DNA of 64,000 nt from positions 1 through 64,000 of the IMG/VR virus record IMGVR_UViG_3300021387_000164; one strand, written 5' to 3'. Of the stretch, positions 12,162 to 47,204 are shown piece after piece. Below the pieces are notes generated by a model. That model ran no database searches, was not told the origin of the DNA, and saw nothing but the letters and a program-made list of their open reading frames with translations. The stretch is from a virus. Lineage: Duplodnaviria > Caudoviricetes. Within the stretch, counting starts at the first letter, position 1; each line of letters begins with the position of its first letter. Both the position numbers and the translations under genes were made by a program.

Positions 12162-12220
12162 GGAGTGAGTGCGGGAGTCGAACCCGCAGAATAAATTCGT
12201 CCAAATTACCCACTCTCCCC
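12162..12220 (-). ncRNA. anticodon-less tRNA-like minihelix
   Basis: GCGGG-UUCGACU-CCCGC T-arm stacked on GGGGAGAGU/ACUCACUCC. Confidence 0.5.
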
Positions 12221-15319: not shown

Positions 15320-16260
15320 AATTGTGCACAGCCCATCATCATACCGTTCTAGTCATCTGTAGCGCCGGGTCATCGCCCATTAAGACGCTTCTTGTACTAC
15401 CCCATTTCGTAGACAGAACAATATGAATACCATATAGTTTGCAGTTCACCCGTTTTAAGTCTTCTTGGAACTGCGTAAAGGTTACAGACTATGTATATTG
15501 ATTTTAAGAAACATGACCGATAAAAAATGCTTGCGCCTTGTTTCACAACAAGAATCTTTTTCTAACTATGACGAATCTAAGTATTATAATAACACAAATG
15601 AAAACCACACAATTATTTACGCAAGCACCATGTCTCACGACATGTAAATCACATTATTAATTGTTTAAAATAATAGATGTAGTAGTTCCCACAGTTGTCT
15701 TCGCGACTACGTCTCGTATATGCAGCGTATAAATACCTGGGATACGTCTCGCACTGTGGGAGAAGGTTTTTCGCACCTACAACTCATGCCGGATTACTTG
15801 TAGACCGCTATCTGAGGCACAGCGGTGAGTATATACTCTCCAGTGTCAGCTTCTTTTTAAGTCTCCTCTGACCACGACTCGATAGATAGGATGGTTCGGA
15901 CGCTCCATCTACTCCTGCTATCTACCTCATTAAAATTGTACCGACTAGCATCCGGTTCTAGAATCCGTCACGGTACTGTAGGGTCAACTAGCACCCCCTT
16001 TGTTCGATTGATGTTTTTAAGGTGAATATTCGACAAATCACATTTCGCCTCCATCTCTCATACGTTGTTCCTATCGAGATGTGACTACGCGCAACGTATA
16101 CGCTTGCACCCTCTCTGCATTCTCCAACTAGGCCGACTCCCCGCAGGGATTTTGTTATTAGTTGGTTGTCTGGACTTGAGGTTTCCAGATCTCAGCTGCA
16201 TTCTATGCATATAAAAGGTGAATGCTACGATTCTCACGAACAGTAGCATTCTAAAAAAGC
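15320..16260 (-). ncRNA. ORF-poor structured region, candidate ncRNA(s)
   Basis: Multiple stems (for example CCCACAGT/ACTGTGGG 15688-15760) and motifs shared with 5450-7810. Confidence 0.4.
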
Positions 16261-16272
16261 AATAGCAAAATA

Positions 16273-16500
16273 TTACACCTTTTTCAATATTATGTTGTCG
16301 ATGGCGCATTGCAGACGTGGAAATCCGTTACGTCCGTCAACGACATTTGGACACAATACAATATCATTTAACGCACATCCGAAGCATCCGTTGGTGCGTT
16401 TCTTGGCACGATACACAACATCGTTAATTGTGCATAATTGCCCAGGCTTAAGTTTTATCTGCCTGTGTCTTCTAGATACTATATTTTTACTCATTTGCAA
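16273..16500 (-). CDS. small Cys-rich protein, paralog family member 1
   Basis: KPGQLCTINDVVYRAKK...CFGC...C...C. Confidence 0.75.
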   Translation of the reverse strand: MQMSKNIVSRRHRQIKLKPGQLCTINDVVYRAKKRTNGCFGCALNDIVLCPNVVDGRNGFPRLQCAIDNIILKKV

Positions 16501-16636
16501 TTCTTTAAAAAAAGCAAAGCAAACACTATGACTAACCCTATCCAGAATCCGGGTGGCAACTTTTCATCTGGTTTTTTCATATAAAGTTTAATCATTTATG
16601 TACTTTGATAGTTATAAACTCGCCTAGGACTGCCCC

Positions 16637-20920: not shown

Positions 20921-20948
20921 TTTTATCTAAGCGCTCTCACTTGCGCTG

Positions 20949-21003
20949 AACTGTTTCGTCGTAATTTTCAACGACTCATCAGGAGCCTAAAGGCCCGACA
21001 GTT
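20949..21003 (-). ncRNA. hammerhead ribozyme, type III
   Basis: AACUGUC^GGGCC-UUUA-GGCUC-CUGAUGA-GUCGU(UGAAAAUU)ACGAC-GAAA-CAGUU. Confidence 0.92.
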
Positions 21004-21060
21004 TATAAATACAGCACACCTATTCTCACGAACCAGTGTGTGCCAGAAATTGAAAATAAT

Positions 21061-28549: not shown

Positions 28550-28858
28550 ATGAAGACATCTAATAAGAAAAACAGAACTAACAAGAAGCCAATGTTCATA
28601 GTAGACCTTACAAACGTTAATGACGCGCGTGATGTGGTATTCGAGTTTACTATTGGCAAGGTTCGCGCAGGGCTCCCCATCACAGAAAACGAGTTGATGA
28701 GTGCTATTAATTATTCAATCGATTACACACTTTCAATACTTAGTGACGCTATTGTCATTGGTACGACATTCTGCGGATTGTGCGATAAGTGTAAGAAACA
28801 AACACCTTGGTACAAGAGGGTTTGGAATTGGATCAAGAAGCCTTTCGTAAAGAAGTGA
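28550..28858 (+). CDS. hypothetical protein
   Basis: 102 aa with amphipathic PWYKRVWNWIKK end. Confidence 0.8.
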   Translation: MKTSNKKNRTNKKPMFIVDLTNVNDARDVVFEFTIGKVRAGLPITENELMSAINYSIDYTLSILSDAIVIGTTFCGLCDKCKKQTPWYKRVWNWIKKPFVKK

Positions 28859-29027
28859 TAACAGCTCGGCAGTGCTGAAAACTGCCTCTCATTTTGAATA
28901 CTAAAAATTAAATCAGTGAGTGACCCCGGCGACACTTAAAAACGCTGGGCCAATACAGCCAGTGTAGGGGGCTGAGATTCAGATGGCCGTCTGAACCTAC
29001 ACAACATAAAGTTAAAATGTTAGTTTG

Positions 29028-29075
29028 AGTCCTATGGTTAGACACACGGCGGGGAGCGTTACCCCGCATAGGACC
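29028..29075 (+). ncRNA. anticodon-less tRNA-like minihelix abutting the suppressor tRNA
   Basis: GUCCUAU/AUAGGAC stacked on GCGGGG-AGCGUUA-CCCCGC. Confidence 0.5.
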
Positions 29076-29076
29076 T

Positions 29077-29154
29077 GTCCCCGTAGTGTAAATACCTTAA
29101 ACACGAGAGATTCTAGCCCTCTAATTCGGCCTAGGTGGGGTCGCGGGGGTACCA
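29077..29154 (+). tRNA. amber suppressor tRNA (CUA), non-canonical D/T loops, probably Gln-derived
   Basis: GUCCCCG/CGGGGGU-A-CCA; D-stem GUGU/ACAC; AGAGA-UUCUAGC-CCUCU; T-arm CGGCC-UAGGUGG-GGUCG. Confidence 0.8.
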
Positions 29155-29176
29155 ATATTCATATAAGAATTAAAAC

Positions 29177-29731
29177 ATGACTATCAGATATAAGAAACTT
29201 TCAGACAAAGCGGTCGCACCTATTAAAGCTCATAATACAGATGCTGGATTCGACTTAACATGTACAAAGATTACTTCGGAACTGAATGAGGCCGGACAAG
29301 TAATACTTGTATATCATACCGATATTGCCGTAGAAATTCCATACGGATATTTTGGGGCATTGGTACCTAGGTCTTCTATATCAAACAAGACAGTATCTCT
29401 TACTAACTGTATGGGTGTTATTGATTCTGGTTATCGTGGAGAAATTATGGCTAAGTTTCGTAATACTATAGACGCTGTTCCAGCTTTGTATAATACAGGC
29501 GAAAGATTTGCACAGCTTCTTATTCTTCCTGTTCCAGACGTACAGTTTGAAGAGTCAGACACATTGAGTGACAGTGATCGTGGAGCTAACGGTTATGGTT
29601 CTACTCAAGATGGAGAGATAAGCGCACCAACGGCTACTCAGAGTCTTCCGGAAACAGAAGGCGAGCCAATGAACTCTGAGCCCGCAAACGCAGGCAGCGG
29701 CGAGGCACAAAACAGCCTTGAGGCGGCATAA
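29177..29731 (+). CDS. dut: trimeric dUTPase
   Basis: AGFDL, PRSS, GVIDSGYRGEI, ERFAQL, RGANGYGST. Confidence 0.96.
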   Translation: MTIRYKKLSDKAVAPIKAHNTDAGFDLTCTKITSELNEAGQVILVYHTDIAVEIPYGYFGALVPRSSISNKTVSLTNCMGVIDSGYRGEIMAKFRNTIDAVPALYNTGERFAQLLILPVPDVQFEESDTLSDSDRGANGYGSTQDGEISAPTATQSLPETEGEPMNSEPANAGSGEAQNSLEAA

Positions 29732-35127: not shown

Positions 35128-38100
35128 ATGAGCGATAGAAAATATATTTCAAAAGTAATTTCTAATGGAGAAACTTATCATGTTAAAGATAAGGAAATCC
35201 GGGATTCTCTTGGCCAAGTAAACGGTATCGCTACGTTGGGTTCAGATGGCAAGGTTTCGCCGTCACAATTACCAACCGATATAGATACCACATATCAGTT
35301 CTCGCAAAGTGGTAACTCTTTGCAAGTTGGTGTTAATGGTGGTACTAAAGATACCGTATATACACCCACTATTACAAAAAGTACAGTGGGTTTAGATAAT
35401 GTAACAAACGACGCTCAGGTAAAACGCACAGAGATGGGTGCTGCTTTTGGAGTTGCTACTCTTGATGATAATGGCAAGGTTCCAGCATCGCAGTTACCTT
35501 CTTATGTTGATGACGTATTAGAATACGCAGATAGGTCGTCGTTTCCACAAACCGGAGAAACCGGAAAGATATACGTAGACAAATCTACGAACATTACATG
35601 GAGATGGGGTGGTTCTGATTATGTTGAGATAAGCCCCAGTTTGGCACTCGGAGAAACATCTTCTACTGCATACGCTGGAGACAAAGGTAAAGCATTGGCC
35701 GATAAATTGTCTGGTATCGAGAGTGGTGCACAGGTGCATAGAGCACCAACAACAGCAGAGGTTAAAAGTGCACTCGGAACAGGTAGCGGGACTGTCAAAT
35801 ATCTTAGAGAAGATGGTACGTGGGCCACACCTCCAAACTCACAATATTCGTTTGTTGATAAAGACGCCACACTTGATTGGGGTACAAGAAGTACTATAGC
35901 AACTGCAGGTGATGTTGATATTCACGTTACGATGCCTTCTAATCCTAATACAAATACTGCAAGATTACAGGTATCTGATACGGCAAACAAACGTATTAAC
36001 ACAAAGGAAAGCACGGGGAACTACTTACAGTTTATAGGTGGTACAAATAAATTTAGTGTAAGTGATGGAACAAACACGTTCAATGTCGATATTACACCAA
36101 GCGTATCATTTCCTGTAACATCTGTTGTAGGCCAAACAGGAGAAGTTACCGTTTCACAAATAGCTTCGGCTCTAACTGGGGCTGGGTATAAATTAACAGA
36201 TACAATATACAGTCTTCCTGCTGCAGCATCCAATACGCTTGGTGGTATTAAGACTGGATACACGACAGACGCCAGAAATTATAAGGTATCACTTGATTCA
36301 AATAGTAACGCATATGTTAATGTACCTTGGTCAGATACTACATATTCAGCTGGAACTGGTATATCATTATCTGGTACAACATTTGGTATTAATTCCACAT
36401 ATCAAGATTATATTAGCCATGGTAACACGGCCTACGGCTGGGGTAATCACGCTAATGCCGGATATGCTTCGGCAAGTTCATTAGGTAACTACCTGCCACT
36501 TAGCGGTGGTACTATGACTGGTCAGTTAACCATAAACGGTCCAGACATTATTTTAGCAACCTATAGTAGCAGTTCTAACGATTCAGGTGACTTGGTTTTC
36601 CAGTATGGAAATGGAAGTGAAAAAGCAAGAATTTGGACGGATGATGAATACACATCAGGAATGGGACCTAATTACAGATGTTATGATAATAATGGTTCTG
36701 CATTATATAGTGGCAGATTGGCTACTATTGGAGAACTTGGGTATTATCTTCCTTTGAGTGGCGGCACGATGAGTGGCGGTATTAGTTGGAACGATAGTGG
36801 TGCATTACCTGAAAGAGAAACAATAGCGTATTTTCTTGTTATTGACGCGTTCGCTGATGGTGGTAGAACGAAATGGGCATCTGTTGACAGACTTAAAACA
36901 TCACAATTAACAAATGATGCTGGGTATATAACAAGTAGCGGTTCTTGTGATTATGCGTCTTCTGCTGGCAATTCGTCAACTGTTGGGGGTTTGTATGCCA
37001 CAGACTTTTTGCGCCACTACACCGAAACATCACTTGACGCAAATAGTGCCGCACAAGGTTGGCATGACGTTCAAAACAACATAGAAAATGCTGCCCATAC
37101 CAATCATTCCACATTGATATACGTTACAAATGTCGGAACACCTTTCCAGTTACAAATTCCAGATAGTTCGGAAGACTGCATATACAAGAGGTATTATCAA
37201 AGTGGTTCTTGGTCTTCTTGGTTTAAAATAAGTGCAGGTAACTCAGATACTGTAGATAATTTACACGCAACAGACCTTGTACGTTATTATCATGATGCCA
37301 CAACAAACCCGAATATAGACACATTCGCATATGCAGCATATTTGCTAACACAAGCTGATTCTGGCTAGTGGGCAGGTGGTACACCACCAAGTGGTGCACA
37401 TAATGGACTTGGTATCATTAATGTGCACACACACGTTGGCAACTATTATACACAACTTGCTTTAGATACCAATCAGAATTTGCTATGGATTCGCAGTGCA
37501 AATAATAGTGACTCATTTGGTTCTTGGGTTTATATGATTAACTCAAGTAATATCGGCTCTCAATCTGTTAGCTACGCAAATAGCGCAGGTAATGCTGACA
37601 CAGTTAATGGTTATCGTGAATATTATTTTCTTAGATACAGAGGAGCTACAGTAGCTGACGGAGAAGGTACACTGTGGTCTCAGATAGGTATTAAACAATA
37701 TGAGAATGCTCTACCTGATGGATTAACCTCTTCTGGTTCTTATACATTTGGTAGTGTAATTACTTTTGCTGGAGCTGACCATAGATTAGAATTCTGGTCT
37801 AATCATCATTCATCTGCTGGTAATTATGGAATTGCGTATAGAACTGGATGGGATGACGATAAACGGCCGTGGACTAGATTAATCGATAGTAACAATATAG
37901 GTTCACAATCGGTTTCTTATGCTACAAGCGCAGGTAATGCGGATACTGTGGATGGGTATCATTACGACAATTTGCCTTATTTGTCTAATAGCGGTGGCAG
38001 CTTATGGGGAAATATAACTTTTAATGGCGGTCACGCGATTAATCATCTTTATACAATCTATTGCGCTGGCTCTGATACCAACCACGTACTATATCTTGGT

Positions 38101-39036
38101 TATAATGGAAAAGATTACGTTACTTGGCACGAATATGGTAACGATTGGCGTTTCTATTATGGTGGAAGTACAGCAGAACGAGATGGTTACCTTTCTGTTA
38201 TGCTGGGTTCTACAAACTATTTCGAAAGTAACGTTGGTATAGGTACTACAAGTCCATCCTACAAGCTACATGTAGTAGGCGACATCTACGCAACGGGAGA
38301 TATAATGTCCCAAAGTGCATTAACCGTAACCTCTGGAAATGATAATAAAATTATATTGGACAACACCGATAGCGAAACATATTGGTCTTTAATTTCTTTT
38401 AGAGACCATGGATCAGAGTACGGCTATCTTGGTACTAGGGGTTCAACAGATTTAGTCTGGAACGGAAATGTAGTAATCCATAGTGGTAACATAACATCTC
38501 AATACGTTAGCCATGCAGATAGTGCCGGTTCCGTTGATTGGAGTAACGTCAGTGGAAGACCTTCGAGTATGCCGGCTAGCGACGTATATAGCTGGGCTAA
38601 AGCTTCATCTAAACCGAGTTACAGCTGGAGCGAAATAACAGATAAGCCAACAATACCTGATACCGGTAAGATGAACTATTTAACGTCCAATGCAGACATA
38701 TATCCTCAGTATGGGGTAAATGTATTGGTTAAAATGTCAACTACCAATGGGTATATAAATTTACCATCACTTAGCCAAAGTCAAAGTTACACAGGAACAA
38801 GTGGTAGTCAAAAATTTGCATATATCATCCGTCTTGCATGTCACACAAGCGGATCAGCATTTACTATGTATGGATATAGAGGAACCTCTGCAACAAGTCA
38901 ATATCCGCACGTTAGATCAGGTAATACAGCTGATAGAACAACAGGTGTCGCTTTTTCTGCTGGAGATACTGACACATACATGTTAACATACGATGGTAGT
39001 GTATACGAAGCTTATAGACTTTGTTATACAGAATAA
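35128..39036 (+). CDS. tail fibre / receptor-binding protein (1302 aa; one TAG)
   Basis: Two track ORFs in one frame joined at TAG 37366; fibre motifs GVATLD..GKVP..QLP, YLPLSGGTM, NADTVDG, NVGIGTTSPSYKLHV. Confidence 0.9.
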
Positions 39037-42500: not shown

Positions 42501-42625
42501 GTGCTAAAACAATTAACTGTGTTGTTATTGCTCCAAATGTAAGTGATGTTACTGGAACAGTAAGTACATTTATACCAGAGGGTGACAACGACGAATACCT
42601 GTTACAGGATAATAGACAATTCTGA
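39545..42625 (+). CDS. long coiled-coil tail/fibre protein with internal duplication
   Basis: Repeat of about 100 aa at 402-nt offset; VNINADKINL motif. Confidence 0.85.
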   Translation: MINTIFYFTDTEQEYKDNLVNGSVKPHTICFTKDTKALWRDGVRYSGQNAQEVLEAITDITGPLRETLEESIRLAEETAEHRSQELEDSLLETRQYLNTTKQELVAEDARLSSDLENTKSTVTTVNNRITSEVANLTAELQSLDTDIQGVASDLETTASNIQGRLDRGEVTYNNGWNENVKAYMQTVGLWDYGEGSSIDTKWSQLRQSVSGVSSEVNRVENKLDGNVTTLQSAINQEVTDRGTAITELNNTYAQKEADSESVLRWLYSGLKTGTNPELTYAQLVAASKTGDTSAISNIDALVEEIKDAQGQPTGKYRATSNMTSAVDNAISGILNSTTGDYANSTMISRLDGNIGALDVRVGKTESDIQGIASNSSLTAKFLAKTDFNTAKATLEAADTANSNAIGQVQTQVNVLNGGPEVTNSVAAKVNSSLATFEQNVNNGTACTTLINRVTTAENRVTTAEGSINDLDGDLSDLQGDVNNNSTAIAGLDVRVSGTEQSILNIASNDNLTAKFLAKTDFNTAKAALEAADTANSNAIGQVQTEVETLNGGPEVTTSIASRINSAISTFEQNVNNGTACTTLVNKVDTAASDINDVKGDLADTNTSLTALVTYVDQDQAYGTLTAKLNDMQAGVVTDVKDDLATAGILTKSGSSYQANVFTKVETNSTIDTKVSTATSGLMAASDFNSASVVAKVNEAGSSVNINADKINLVGQTSFNNAIGEMISARTLKLSDVDGQVKAVLSGGNASFVGNVTAKQFLAGDPNALNITMTDKAISFNYGNDTRAWFTPFDEDNQLKDGMFLYIKNPDSSAANSIITIDFANLKFKNTNPPAPVHSANFTHITTTYDGLATLAPVIKYYTVVDGVTTYYNDSECQYPATWSVGNLYEHDESFDVVLHDTRNDKYNYMTLARYRQVTFNNGELVYQNNYTSISYDPFYGQSPNYYVTTESRSTTIQNPNTTILYGISEYTLSETGENAYMFRSDSAKTINCVVIAPNVSDVTGTVSTFIPEGDNDEYLLQDNRQF

Positions 42626-42653
42626 ACTACTACTAATTGATACTATATAGAAT

Positions 42654-44717
42654 ATGGTAGACTTTAATAAGAAACTAAAAAATACAGATAAATTCCGCTA
42701 GGCGGCGCTATTTTTTAAAGAACATAATTGTTACACGCTGGCCCCGCGAGGTACTACAGATTACATAAAATATTGGGAGCAGGAAGCTGAGCGTTGTATA
42801 AACGGATACGTCGCTGATGATGGAGATTCTATTACTGGTTACCATTATTTCTACTTAAATTACAGCCCAATTATTAAACGTGTCGATGTTCAATATACAG
42901 ATAGATTCGGCAACGTTAGAATTAGAAGAGATCGTGTATTAGATTTCCCAGACTTCTGGGATGGTGATTACTATTTCTTTCAAGCTGTAGAAGAGGCCGA
43001 GCAGCAAGGTAAACACCTTGCTGTTCTTAAGGCCCGTAAAAAGGGATTTAGTTTTAAAGGCTCATCAATGCTTGTTAGAAACTATGCCCTTGTAAAAGAA
43101 TCAAAAAACTTCGCTATTGCATCAGAGTAGAAATTCCTAATTGGTGATGGTTTGTTGACTAAAGCATGGGAAATCATGGACTTTATTGACAAACACACAG
43201 AATGGGCTAAGCGAAGATTAACAGCTACTCGTATGGAGCGTGTGTCCGGATTTAAAGTTAAAGATGACCTTGGTAGGGAAACTGAACAAGGATATAAATC
43301 TGCAATTACTGGCATGACGCTTAAGAACGATCCGGAACGTGTCCGCGGTATTCGTGGAAAGCTAGTATTATTTGAGGAGAGTGGTAAATTCCCAAACCTC
43401 GAAACGGCTTGGCGTGTAAGTCAGCCTTCTATGGAGGATGATAGCGGTACAGCATTCGGATTGATGATCGCTTTCGGTACTGGTGGTACGGAAGGCGGAC
43501 AATTTGACGGACTAAAGACATTGTTTTATAGTCCAGAGGCATATAATGTATTGAGCTTTCCTAATATATGGGACGACAACGCTGAGGAAACAAGATGTGG
43601 TTACTTCTCTCCGTTCTACTTGAATATGGAGGGTTTTGATGATGATGGTAACAGAATCTTCATGGACAGTGATGGAAATAGTATGGTCGAGAAAGCCATG
43701 AATGATATCATTGCCAAACGTAATGAAGTTAAGGATGGCGGTGCATCACAAACGTCTATCGATAGATTCATTTCAGAAAGACCAATAAAACCTCAAGAGG
43801 CCGTCTTAGAGCTCGGTAAAAATATATTTCCTAGAAAGCTTCTAATGGATCAATTGACTCGTATTAGAACGAATAAAAAACTATAGCACATGAAACATAT
43901 AGTAGACTTAAAATGGGGTGCTAATGGTACAGTAGAAGCTGTGGAAAAAAAGGTAGGAGATATAACTACTTATCATTTAAAGAAAGATGACAAACCAGAA
44001 GGATCTGTAGTTATCTGGGAATACCCGGTCCCGGACCCGCCATTGGGATTATACATTGGCGGTTGCGACCCGTATGATCATGATGAGTCATTCACTAACT
44101 CCTTAGGATCGACGTTCATATTTAAACGCGTTAGAGCTGGAGAAGCGTGGAATGATGTAATTGTAGCTGAATATTCAGGTAGACCAGATACAGCAGAAGA
44201 ATACTACGAAAACGTGCGCAAACTTCTTATGTTTTATAATGCACGTTTGTTGTTTGAGAATGAACGTAAGGGTATATATCCATACTTCACTAACAAACAC
44301 TGCGATTACCTTCTAGCAGATCAACCTGATAAAGTTATATCAGAAATATTTAAGGACAGCAAAGTATCAAGAAGAAAAGGCTGTCACATGACGAAACAGA
44401 TTAGGGCGTACGGAGAAGGTTTAATACTCGAATGGTTAATGGAAGAGTATGAAGAAGGACACCTTAATCTAGAAAGAATATACAGCGAACCTCTAATAGA
44501 AGAGCTTATAGAGAACGATGGCGTAAAGAACGTTGACCGACTAATTGCTCTATGTATGGTTATGCTATACAGGGAAGAACTATATTAGGTAAAGGTTTCT
44601 GCTGCAAAAGAACAAAATAAACAGGTTGAACTCTTCGAACTACCGTTATTTAGTCAACGATACTGGGATGCTGATAATGACGGCGAGAAAGATAATATAC
44701 CTTTATTTAGCTTTTAA
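42654..44717 (+). CDS. terL: terminase large subunit (687 aa; four TAG)
   Basis: Walker A LKARKKGFS, Walker B LVLFEESG, FGTGG, nuclease GCDPY; TAG at 42699, 43128, 43884 and 44586 all in frame. Confidence 0.93.
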
Positions 44718-44720
44718 CAT

Positions 44721-47204
44721 ATGGTTAGAGTAGAAGATAATTTATATAACTTAACGTTTCCACAACAGAAACTGCCACTTAAAAAGAAAGATGAGCAGTG
44801 GCAACACGATTGTGTGAACTTTATTATAGGCGAGGGAAACGTGGTGTCTGGTGGTGTGACCAAGGCACGTTTCGGAGAGATATAGACCTACTACAACCTT
44901 TATAATTCTATATTTGATGAGAAAGATTTTAAGCGCATTACAAATCCGTTTAAAGTTGAAGATGGATTTCCCGCTACTCCTCAAGATTTCAATATAATAA
45001 GGCCTAAGGTAGACCTCCTTATAGGTGAAGAGACAAAGAGGCCTATGAACTTCAGGGTGGTGAGAACGTCACAAGAAGCCGCATCAGAGTTAATGGATAA
45101 AGAGAAGGATCTGTTAATACAATATGTAATGGCGTCCATCACAGCTAGAATGGGAGAAGAGGAAGCTGCTCAATTTCAACAGCAATTGGAGAATGGCGAA
45201 ATAATGCCGCCTGAAGCAATTGCTAAATACATGAATAAGGATTATAAAGACCCTGTAGAAAATACAGCATATCACACTCTCGTACATTTAAGAGAAAGAC
45301 TCATACTGGATAATGAGTTTATTAAAGGTTGGAAAGACGCACTTATTTCTGGTATTGAAGTATACTATGTTGGTGTACTAAACGACGAACCATATCTAGA
45401 AAGAGTAAATCCAATGATGTTCTCTTATGATAATTCACCGGACCTTGAGTTTATTGAAGATGGTTCTTGGTGTTGTCGTAGAATGAGAATGTCCGTAAGT
45501 GAGATTTACGATAGATATTATAAAAAGCTGTCAGAGAAAGATTTGAATAAACTGACAGAAATGCTTACAGGAAAGTCGGCCAACGATTTGGGCGAGAAAG
45601 ACCCGGTTGACAATTTTGGCGGCGGCATACAGATGCATATATACGACAATCCATATATGGATCAAAAATCAAGGTATGCAATTAATGTATGGCATTGTTG
45701 CTGGAAGTCGTTTAAAAAGATATACTATGTAACATACTTCGACGAAGCAGGACAAGCACAGGTGGAAATAGAAGACGAGTCATATAAAAAGACTGGAATG
45801 GAAATTTCCGTTGAACCAGATTGGATTATAGAAGTTTGGGAAGGATATCGTGCCGGAACCGATCTTTATTTTGGTATTCAACCTATCGAATATCAACACG
45901 TATCTATTGATAATCCAAATTCTCAAAAGCTTCCATATTGTGGATGCGTTTATTCTAATACCAATAGTCGTCCTAGGTCCCTTGTTAGTATCCTTAAACC
46001 TTTACAGTATATGTACATTGTACTTTGGTACAGACTGGAGTTAGCAATCGCAAGAGACAAAGGTAAGGTAATTAATATGGATATTACTCAGATACCTAAA
46101 TCAATGGGTATCACTCCAGAGAGATGGATGCACTATTTGTCTTCTGTAGGTGTTAACTTTGTTAACCCATACGAGGAAGGTGTTCAAGGTCGAGAAGGAG
46201 GTCGTTCTGCAACATTCAATCAATTCTCGTCAGTAGATTTGACAATGTCAAATGTTATTGCTGAGTATATTCAGCTTATGGATAAGATTGAACAGCTTGC
46301 GGGCACTATATCTGGTATCACAGAACAGCGTCAAGGAGCTATCAGTTCTTCTGAACTTGTGGGCAATGTAGAGCGTTCTGTTGTGCAGTCTTCGCATATC
46401 ACTGAGCCTTTATTCTGGGTACACAATCAATGTAAACGCCACGCACTAAATATGTTGCTCAATACAGCTAAAGGTGCTTGGGAGCAATCTGGTAAGAAGA
46501 AGCTTAGTTATATATTTGATAACGGCGAGCGTGCTTACATCGACATTCAGGAAGACTTCTATTATGAAGATATGGATGTATTTGTAAGTGATACTTCTAA
46601 AGACCTAGAAAATATACAAAAGCTTCAACAGCTCATTCAACCAGCTATGCAAAACGGTGCTAGCCTATTAGAAGCTGCAGAGGTACTTACAAACGACAAC
46701 TTCAACATCATTAAGCAGAAACTTAAGGAGATGCAGGAGCGTCAAGAGCAAATGCAGCAGCAAGCTCAACAAGCAGAACAGCAACAGGCTATTCAGCTGC
46801 AGCAGATGCAGAACGAACAGCGTGAACAAGAGCTTATGCTTGAAGAGGCTAAGATGGAGCTTGAGCGTTACAAGATTGATGCTGATAACCAGACTAAGAT
46901 TGCAGTTGCTGAGATTAGTGCATACCGTGGTACAGAAGAGAAGGACGCTAACCAAAATAACGTACCTGATCCAATCGAGATTGCTAAGGATGCTACACAG
47001 CAACGTAAGATTGCATCTGATGAGTATACTAAGCGTTATGAATCTCGTCAGAAGAAAGAGATAGAAGACAAGAAGATTGATCTTGAGCGTGACCGTATGA
47101 AGCACGAGATGGAGCTGTAGAAGGCTAAAGACGATGCGGCTTTAGAGCGTGAGAAGATTAAAGCAGCCACGGCAAGGGTAAATAAGGTCTCAGGCGAGAA
47201 GTAA
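44721..47204 (+). CDS. portal protein (827 aa; two TAG)
   Basis: Follows terL; NIIRPKVDLLIGEE, Gln-rich barrel; TAG at 44883 and 47118. Confidence 0.9.

Follow-up and report, generated by a model that had tools for sequence, protein, structure and literature searches.

How does a phage that reads the stop codon TAG as an amino acid translate its late genes when none of its canonical transfer RNAs (tRNAs) reads a stop? This question is raised by a crAss-like phage whose DNA we analysed over positions 1 to 64,000 of the IMG/VR record IMGVR_UViG_3300021387_000164 (the window, 64,000 nucleotides (nt) long), and more precisely by an element at 29077-29154. An earlier note, made from the letters of the window, had described this element as an amber suppressor tRNA, with a CUA anticodon for UAG, in which the elbow formed by the D-loop and the T-loop has been rewired. 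Our comparison with related phages leads to a similar picture: the element is very probably a functional amber suppressor tRNA, most likely for glutamine (Gln), in which the elbow has been remodelled. Structurally, it adds a new variant to the TAG-suppressor tRNAs.

A CUA cloverleaf in a TAG-recoded genome

The window is part of a complete phage genome of 99,055 base pairs (bp) with terminal repeats. Its large terminase (TerL) shares 74-78% identity with the terminases of cr272_1, cr273_1, a Bohxovirus, cr130_1 and cr124_1, all of them Crassvirales, Suoliviridae, Oafivirinae. Many genes on the + strand are open only if TAG is read through, the large terminase and portal genes among them (Table 1). 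The complete genome carries four canonical tRNAs (Gln-UUG, Met, Glu and Ile). A canonical suppressor elsewhere, which the earlier note had named, together with a lack of suppression or charging, as what would speak against its reading, was looked for genome-wide: neither ARAGORN, nor Rfam model RF00005 at E<=10, nor a cloverleaf scan of our own found another stop-reading tRNA in the 99,055 bp. The phage genome likewise encodes no synthetase of the glutaminyl- or glutamyl-tRNA synthetase (GlnRS/GluRS) type and no release factor.

Read directly from the sequence, 29077-29154 is a class I cloverleaf with a 7-bp acceptor stem, a 4-bp D stem, a 5-position anticodon stem and a 5-bp T stem. GUCCCCG at 29077-29083 pairs with CGGGGGU at 29144-29150 to form the acceptor stem, in which G1-U72 and U2-G71 are followed by five G-C or C-G pairs. 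A 2-nt linker, U8 A9, leads to the D stem GUGU/ACAC; the anticodon stem, AGAGA/CCUCU, holds an A31.C39 mismatch; a variable loop of 4 nt (AAUU) precedes the T stem CGGCC/GGUCG; and A73 at 29151 is followed by an encoded CCA at 29152-29154. Of the bases that build the tRNA core, U8, A14 and A21 are present, and A15 with U48 could make the R15-Y48 pair. What is missing from the canonical set is the conserved elbow: the D-loop lacks G18G19 and the T-loop has no UUC. On all these points, including the CUA anticodon, our reading agrees with the earlier note; its suggestion that the 5' end could lie at 29076 we reject, the base at -1 being unconserved in relatives (T, T, C, C).

The minimum free energy (MFE) fold computed with ViennaRNA is the same cloverleaf. 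Its energy is no better than that of shuffled sequences (z = 0.42), a comparison that is uninformative for tRNA. Chance was better gauged with our own loose cloverleaf scan, in which the element is the sole CTA cloverleaf of the genome with at least 20 of 21 stem pairs; 20 shuffled genomes gave 2 such hits in all, even though no CCA end was required.

According to the earlier note standard scanners may miss such a tRNA, and ARAGORN and Rfam do. ARAGORN, run on the window and the genome, leaves 29077-29154 uncalled at default and at relaxed thresholds; in fact, 80% and 60% thresholds return 53 and 566 calls, mostly spurious, and still not this one. RF00005 fails to report the element when run at its gathering score and also when the limit is relaxed to E<=10, whether over an 801-nt stretch or genome-wide, and a permissive Rfam scan of 28600-29400 gives two chance snoRNA matches and nothing else. 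A blastn search with a 301-nt region found no match among deposited phages. In the relatives described below, ARAGORN calls every canonical copy of tRNA-CUA and misses 45 of 46 non-canonical copies.

These searches also brought up a few weak RF00005 matches, none of which carries a stop-reading anticodon. One, on the - strand of the window at 12163-12214 (18.3 bits), is a tRNA-like piece with acceptor and T arm and without an anticodon arm. Two others lie on the - strand elsewhere in the genome: a tRNA-His(GUG)-like gene at 93984-94054 (34.8 bits), which default ARAGORN does not call, and a match at 93695-93743 (14.7 bits).

Around the tRNA-CUA gene the rightward gene block is free of TAG; a clear in-frame TAG first appears near 37369, in the frame 35128-39036, about 8 kb past the tRNA, and TerL lies 13 kb past it. 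In a published model, production of the suppressor comes first and the recoded late genes follow (Borges et al., bioRxiv 10.1101/2021.08.26.457843); the position of the tRNA ahead of the TAG-bearing genes fits this model.

Conservation and exchange beside the dUTPase gene

Is the cloverleaf under selection? Three close copies retrieved with exact patterns, in which three stems already showed compensatory changes, were used to build a covariance model, R1. With R1 and a loop-agnostic cloverleaf scanner we searched 200 loci from IMG/VR, metagenomes and other assemblies (L followed by a number denotes a sampled locus). Most of these loci were fetched through the neighbouring dUTPase gene, a way of sampling far better than exact and loop-anchored DNA patterns, which gave few extra IMG/VR copies. 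Every match carries a CUA anticodon, and many have ordinary GG D-loops and UUCGA T-loops. The non-canonical elbows amount to 22 distinct sequences with 14 loop combinations, which fall into two families, A and B.

Pairing holds in 98.1% of the stem cells of these 22 sequences, and at 18 of the 21 pairs both partners have changed. Covariation scores 0.784, compared with 0.214 in shuffles, none of 500 reaching the observed value, and slid controls are all far lower. Through all these changes TCTA (U33 and the anticodon), A73 and CCA are invariant. The window's own version is conserved to the last base (78/78) in L162-168, from six assemblies, beside a dUTPase that is just 77% identical.

The non-canonical genes sit directly upstream of the dUTPase gene, where sister phages hold a canonical tRNA-CUA; in cr272_1 the gene at this locus is annotated in RefSeq as tRNA-Gln, with anticodon CUA. 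In the clearest case, L197 (canonical) and L198 (type B) have identical flanks, 94 nt long on the upstream side and at least 85 nt on the downstream side, their differences being confined to the tRNA. Similarly, L162 (A1) and L167 (B6) have the whole upstream region in common. In a tree of the dUTPases the canonical, A and B types are scattered thoroughly among one another, and tRNA types can differ even where the dUTPase proteins are identical. With identical flanks and intermixed types, the tRNA thus acts like an allele that can be exchanged. The same intermixing prevented a count, on this tree, of how often the odd elbows arose. Two insertions between the tRNA region and the dUTPase gene, a GIY-YIG endonuclease gene (L196:257-1204) and an open reading frame of 171 amino acids (L162:620-1135), are consistent with a recombination-prone spot.

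The common upstream region of L162 and L167 includes a tRNA-like minihelix. In the window, the fold of 29029-29074 (Table 1) agrees with the earlier remark that a minihelix adjoins the tRNA: it ends 2 nt (CU) ahead of the tRNA 5' end. Both of its stems covary in relatives, some of which have a related element with a true UUCGAUU loop instead. The same note had hinted that the odd elbow might need special processing, in which the minihelix might serve. We rejected this role, since the minihelix precedes canonical and non-canonical tRNA-CUA genes alike; for the same reason, it is best regarded as a conserved partner of the suppressor gene rather than an adaptation to the odd elbow. Perhaps it serves as a leader or processing handle.

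The need for a suppressor extends beyond this phage. Three further complete genomes with non-canonical versions (G001-G003) hold 171-190 in-frame TAGs in long frames; ARAGORN finds no tRNA-CUA in them, and none of their extra Rfam tRNA matches, when checked, is CUA. The window's genome has far fewer such TAGs, 33. Two of the three also hold tRNA-like genes in which the acceptor, D and T arms are canonical and the anticodon region is enlarged or odd (G001, C1:105531-105610, 16017-16094, 16492-16568 and 77307-77409; G003, C1:24315-24396), which score 26-44 bits on RF00005 and are called by ARAGORN only if introns are allowed.

Taken together, a sole tRNA-CUA in a TAG-dependent genome, compensatory changes, a shared locus and a clean swap with canonical suppressors support the function proposed in the earlier note, and with considerable confidence we take 29077-29154 to be the phage's own amber suppressor tRNA.

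Several other tRNA-CUA genes at these loci depart from the textbook form in their own ways. The cr272_1 tRNA-Gln (L221:307-380; NC_055903.1 12606-12679) has D-loop AACGAUA and T-loop UUUGAAU; its position 19 is A-like and its position 56 U-like, possibly a covarying version of the G19-C56 elbow pair. Common suppressors that ARAGORN calls and that count as canonical, such as L011:2813-2887 and L030:4620-4694, have an irregular T arm, with CCGGG on the 5' side and CGAUGG or CGGUGG on the 3' side, in which our parser sees 3 pairs and an 8-nt loop. Finally, tRNA-CUA genes of 87-91 nt with a long variable arm (L196:153-239, L094:608-698) have a class II shape and the same kind of minihelix upstream; from their sequences, they are predicted to form another class of amber suppressor among these phages.

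The D-loop/T-loop corner

What could hold the corner of the tRNA together once G18G19 and the T-loop bases are gone? In the window, UACCU of the D-loop (29093-29097) runs antiparallel to AGGUG of the T-loop (29133-29137) and matches it with four Watson-Crick pairs and one G-U pair, a complementarity that the earlier note had already pointed out. Type A elbows have a D-loop of the form AAAU....UAA, with the centres UACCU:AGGUG in A1, the window's type, and UGCU:GGCA in A2. In type B, a D-loop AUGA....UA is combined with a T-loop ending in GAA, and the centres are UGCU:AGCA, UGCU:AGCG, UGCU:GGCA and UUGCU:AGCAG; weaker ones, for example UUCC/AGAU, exist as well.

Over the 14 variants, the energies of the cognate D/T duplexes sum to -33.2 kcal/mol, compared with -16.6 +/- 5.1 kcal/mol when the T-loops are permuted; 17 of 20,000 permutations match the observed value, and canonical relatives average about 0. 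Of the 14 non-canonical variants, 9 have runs of at least four contiguous complementary bases, and of the 13 canonical variants none has (P = 0.004 by permutation, P = 0.008 by within-loop shuffles), the canonical relatives never rising above 3 D/T-loop pairs. Individual changes follow the same trend. The T-loop of L014, CAGGUGA, differs at two flanking bases and keeps AGGUG; where A1 has an A-U pair, A2 has G-C in the same place in the loops; B1 and B7 differ by a C-G to G-C switch at a pair that adjoins an invariant U-A and that, in the gap-free type-B subset, reads C-G six times and G-C twice. The combination UGCU:RGCR recurs in five different loop contexts. The window's D-loop, AAAUACCUUAA, is unchanged in L001, L009, L014 and L162-168 despite differing stems and neighbour genes.

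From these patterns, a short antiparallel Watson-Crick helix of UACCU with AGGUG most likely stands in for the lost contacts G18-psi55 (psi, pseudouridine), G19-C56 and U54-A58. A Watson-Crick contact between the loops is likely in type A, window copy included, and no more than possible in some type-B variants. In type B, AUGA of the D-loop and GAA of the T-loop could form a U-A pair and tandem sheared G.A pairs that would extend the helix.

Several observations weigh against a general helix. The commonest type-B variants (AUGAUUCCUA/AGAUGAA and kin) make 2-3 Watson-Crick pairs, and B9 makes 2. In the gap-free type-B subset only 2-3 pairs are Watson-Crick throughout, and the helix has 63.8% paired cells and one pair changed on both sides. 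Single variants are weakly significant, each with P about 0.01-0.06, as A/U-rich loops also pair by chance; and the variants share descent, so that the permutation tests are not fully independent. A uniform loop-loop helix of 4-5 bp in all variants is rejected, given the 2-3 pairs of B1, B6, B7 and B9. Thus the D/T-loop covariation that the earlier note had proposed to look for in other recoded phages does exist across variants (P about 0.001-0.004), and it is not uniform, falling from 5 pairs to 2-3.

The best of the rival explanations builds on these points: the suppressor would be functional without any Watson-Crick D/T helix, its elbow loose or held by other contacts, and the complementarity partly coincidental or inherited. 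Besides the weak pairing of type B, a matrix of cognate and non-cognate loops from the first six types discriminates poorly, chance runs of at least 4 pairs are common (a mean of 4.6-5.6 of 14 in controls), and type II mitochondrial tRNAs work without a D/T-loop interaction (PMC7609411). Yet such an elbow would have to produce by coincidence an excess of cognate over permuted pairing, the absence of comparable pairing from canonical relatives, the two compensatory switches, and the persistence of UGCU:RGCR and UACCU:AGGUG while the surrounding loop changes. We consider this explanation unlikely, while giving it real weight, and favour the loop-loop helix, at least for type A.

Why should an elbow be rebuilt? 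Escape from host enzymes that read the elbow is a speculation. A wider proposal, which we put forward only tentatively and hold to be rather improbable as a whole, is that in a population of crAss-like phages one locus accommodates at least three exchangeable elbow designs (canonical; A, with a 5-bp D/T helix; B, with AUGA...GAA), maybe through diversifying selection by an elbow-reading factor, and that a bacterial ribosome can use a Watson-Crick loop-loop corner. The factor could be a nuclease of the host or of a rival phage, a processing or quality-control enzyme, or a phage-specific partner. If the proposal is true, the bacterial ribosome accepts a tRNA whose corner is a Watson-Crick loop-loop helix.

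Charging, surroundings and comparison with known tRNAs

Which amino acid would this tRNA carry? The closest canonical tRNA of the genome is the phage tRNA-Gln(UUG), whose sequence bears out the resemblance in D stem and A31-C39 reported in the earlier note: the two have in common GUGU/ACAC, A31.C39, G37 and A73. The tRNA-Gln(UUG) alone has canonical AAUGGUA and UUCAAAU loops, U1-A72, G2-C71 and G3-C70, the anticodon UUG and no encoded CCA. GlnRS touches its tRNA at the acceptor end, along the inner corner and at the anticodon, not at the elbow. Residues opposite TAG in TerL were read from the DNA of nine deposited relatives; a protein database was dropped for this purpose because it holds the window TerL as a full-length entry, so that its gene calls take TAG for a residue and are biased. 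Q is the commonest residue at these columns (124 of 451), E, K and R come next, and Gln occupies 3 of the window's 5 TerL TAG sites in the closest relatives.

Against glutamine stand A at position 36 and the G-U pairs at 1:72 and 2:71, unlike the phage tRNA-Gln; moreover, the assignment is drawn from alignment columns and from the resemblance to tRNA-Gln. Could a functional suppressor then be charged with another amino acid? Only 27% of the TAG-aligned residues are Q, E, K and R being frequent as well; the top of the acceptor stem, G1-U72 and U2-G71, departs from the U1-A72 and G2-C71 of the phage tRNA-Gln; and ARAGORN gives 'Pyl', its default label for every CUA tRNA. Even so, Q is by far the commonest residue and prevails at the TerL sites of the closest relatives, the D stem with G10, U35, A73 and the weak 1:72 pair suit Gln-type tRNAs, RefSeq labels the cr272_1 ortholog tRNA-Gln, and the architecture of tRNA-Pyl is absent. 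Metaproteomics has shown TAG to be Gln in crAss-like phages (PMC9523058). Charging with a residue other than glutamine therefore seems improbable.

Still less probable is the idea that the RNA, though shaped like a tRNA, serves for something other than decoding, whether as a processing or punctuation signal, as a decoy for a host factor or as a primer, and that TAG is read by a host suppressor or in some other way. The genome does hold other tRNA-like pieces (12163-12214 in the window, 93695-93743 in the genome) and a minihelix adjacent to the element, a host-encoded suppressor is among the explanations listed for recoded phages (Yutin et al., PMC7886860), and the decoding role is itself deduced from sequence comparison. 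This account would leave unexplained why CUA, U33, a purine at 37, a 7-nt anticodon loop, A73 and CCA are kept in 22/22 variants with compensation in every stem, why the RNA is swappable with canonical suppressors at the same site, and how four complete TAG-dependent genomes manage with no alternative tRNA-CUA; in addition, an amber suppressor of the host would harm a host that uses the standard code. The weakest candidate, a decaying, inactive relic of a canonical suppressor, could point to the lost universal elbow bases, the two G-U pairs atop the acceptor stem, the A.C mismatch and scores below every tRNA model threshold, but the mismatch is also found in the phage's canonical tRNA-Gln, and 98% pairing with 18/21 compensated pairs, 78/78 identity beside a 77%-identical dUTPase and the role of sole tRNA-CUA in genomes whose long frames hold 33-190 in-frame TAGs are not expected of a relic. 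In fact, covariation, locus equivalence and the need of the genome, taken together, make a relic or a chance cloverleaf very unlikely.

To account for these results we propose that a Gln-inserting suppressor acts as follows. The tRNA would be transcribed at the head of the rightward block, kilobases before the first TAG-bearing genes, and cut from a precursor in which the minihelix abuts its 5' end. No addition of CCA would be needed, because CCA is encoded. The tRNA would then be charged with glutamine, most likely by the host GlnRS, and Gln inserted at UAG would yield full-length terminase, portal and other late proteins.

Table 1. The suppressor candidate, its parts and other features of the window, with strand and supporting evidence.
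Feature	Position	Strand	Evidence
tRNA(CUA), predicted amber suppressor, type A1, 78 nt	29077..29154	+	hand-drawn cloverleaf identical to MFE fold; model R1, 108.9 bits; stem covariation
D-loop AAAUACCUUAA, 11 nt, without G18G19	29090..29100	+	read from sequence
Anticodon CTA (reads UAG) in 7-nt loop UUCUAGC, with U33 and G37	29113..29115	+	sequence; TCTA invariant in 22/22 non-canonical relatives
T-loop UAGGUGG, without U54-psi55-C56 and A58 (no UUC)	29132..29138	+	read from sequence
tRNA-like minihelix: 7-bp acceptor-like stem, 13-nt linker, 6-bp stem, 7-nt loop AGCGUUA	29029..29074	+	fold
Motif AGTTAAAATGTTAGTTTGA, directly upstream of the minihelix	29010..29028	+	once in window; same or similar in relatives
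Phage tRNA-Gln(UUG), closest canonical tRNA of the genome	11837..11908	-	ARAGORN and Rfam
Large terminase gene, 5 in-frame TAG	42582..44717	+	TAG-read-through open reading frame; PHROG terminase, E = 1e-145
Portal gene, 2 in-frame TAG	44721..47204	+	TAG-read-through open reading frame; PHROG portal, E = 2e-165

The surroundings of the gene offer candidate signals. The motif AGTTAAAATGTTAGTTTGA keeps its position in relatives, for example L162, L167, L010, L081 and L090, and may be a promoter for a transcript that would comprise minihelix, tRNA and dUTPase. Further upstream, a terminator-like hairpin at 28868-28886 comes after the preceding gene and is followed by a U-rich run. Another hairpin, at 28962-29002 on the + strand, about 30 nt upstream of the minihelix, is formed by GTGTAGG ... 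CCTACAC, which enclose an inner stem, TTCAGA/TCTGAA; L162 and L167 share part of this hairpin, GATGGCC.TCTGAAC. On the other side of the tRNA, a hairpin motif, GCGTAGGTTAGAGATGCGC, lies a few bases past the CCA of suppressor tRNAs in several relatives (L162:573-605, L001:1045-1075, L098:429-460, L161:4752-4780, also L036 and L117); in the window it has 0 matches with up to 3 mismatches. We saw no tRNA-related function among the neighbouring genes. Away from this region, in the leftward gene block, a type III hammerhead ribozyme is matched by Rfam at 20948-21004 on the - strand (52.6 bits against a gathering score of 48.5).

How does this tRNA compare with what is known? We found no description of phage tRNAs with such a rebuilt elbow in the searchable literature; work on theta-ribozymes concerns the 3' trailers of ordinary tRNAs. 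The possibility had been foreseen, since two surveys speculate that divergent suppressors escape detection (Yutin et al., PMC7886860; Borges et al., bioRxiv 10.1101/2021.08.26.457843). According to Borges et al., a TAG suppressor is found in just about 40% of the genomes recoded at TAG, and non-canonical tRNAs are suspected in the others; Yutin et al. count a host-encoded suppressor among the possible explanations. The variant described here bears on this 'missing suppressor' problem: a rebuilt elbow is one concrete explanation for the many recoded phages that seem to lack a suppressor tRNA, and the example is backed by covariation over 14 loop variants, whose sequences allow a covariance model with which the share of the gap due to such tRNAs can be tested.

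Two known groups of tRNAs that do without the usual elbow were compared. Type II metazoan mitochondrial tRNAs are cloverleaves in which G18G19 and T-psi-C are unconserved (PMC7609411); they serve specialised mitoribosomes, whereas the loops of the window tRNA are complementary and covary, and a bacterial ribosome would be required. The second group is tRNA-Pyl, a natural decoder of amber codons: it has a CUA anticodon, lacks G18G19 and T-psi-C, makes an unusual D/T-loop contact and works on bacterial ribosomes (PMC7609411). We nonetheless rejected membership of this group on the linker, the D-loop's size, the anticodon stem and the variable loop. In tRNA-Pyl the acceptor/D linker is 1 nt, the D-loop 5 nt, the anticodon stem 6 bp and the variable loop 3 nt (PMC7609411), whereas the window tRNA has 2 nt in the linker, 11 nt in the D-loop, 5 positions in the anticodon stem and 4 nt in the variable loop, and its descent appears to be from Gln-type suppressors.

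The nearest known system is the canonical suppressor of Crassvirales (Suoliviridae), for example KNV61_gt02 of cr272_1 (NC_055903.1 12606-12679). It has the same anticodon at the same locus, in the same kind of phage, whose late genes are likewise recoded; the two resemble each other in their acceptor and D-stem pattern, and a hairpin or minihelix lies upstream of both. The elbow sets them apart: the canonical suppressors have GG-type D-loops and UUCGA-type T-loops and are found by ARAGORN or in RefSeq, while the window tRNA, with its GG-free 11-nt D-loop and its UAGGUGG, is reported by neither ARAGORN nor Rfam. Such natural, interchangeable alleles with and without G18G19 and T-psi-C make the need for the elbow testable in processing, modification, charging and ribosome function, and odd-elbow suppressor tRNAs could seed orthogonal suppressors. 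With a CUA anticodon, in-frame TAG codons in essential genes, homology and synteny all in place, we conclude that the amber suppressor tRNA-Gln(CUA) of TAG-recoded crAss-like phages is the source from which the window tRNA descends and that the two very probably work alike.

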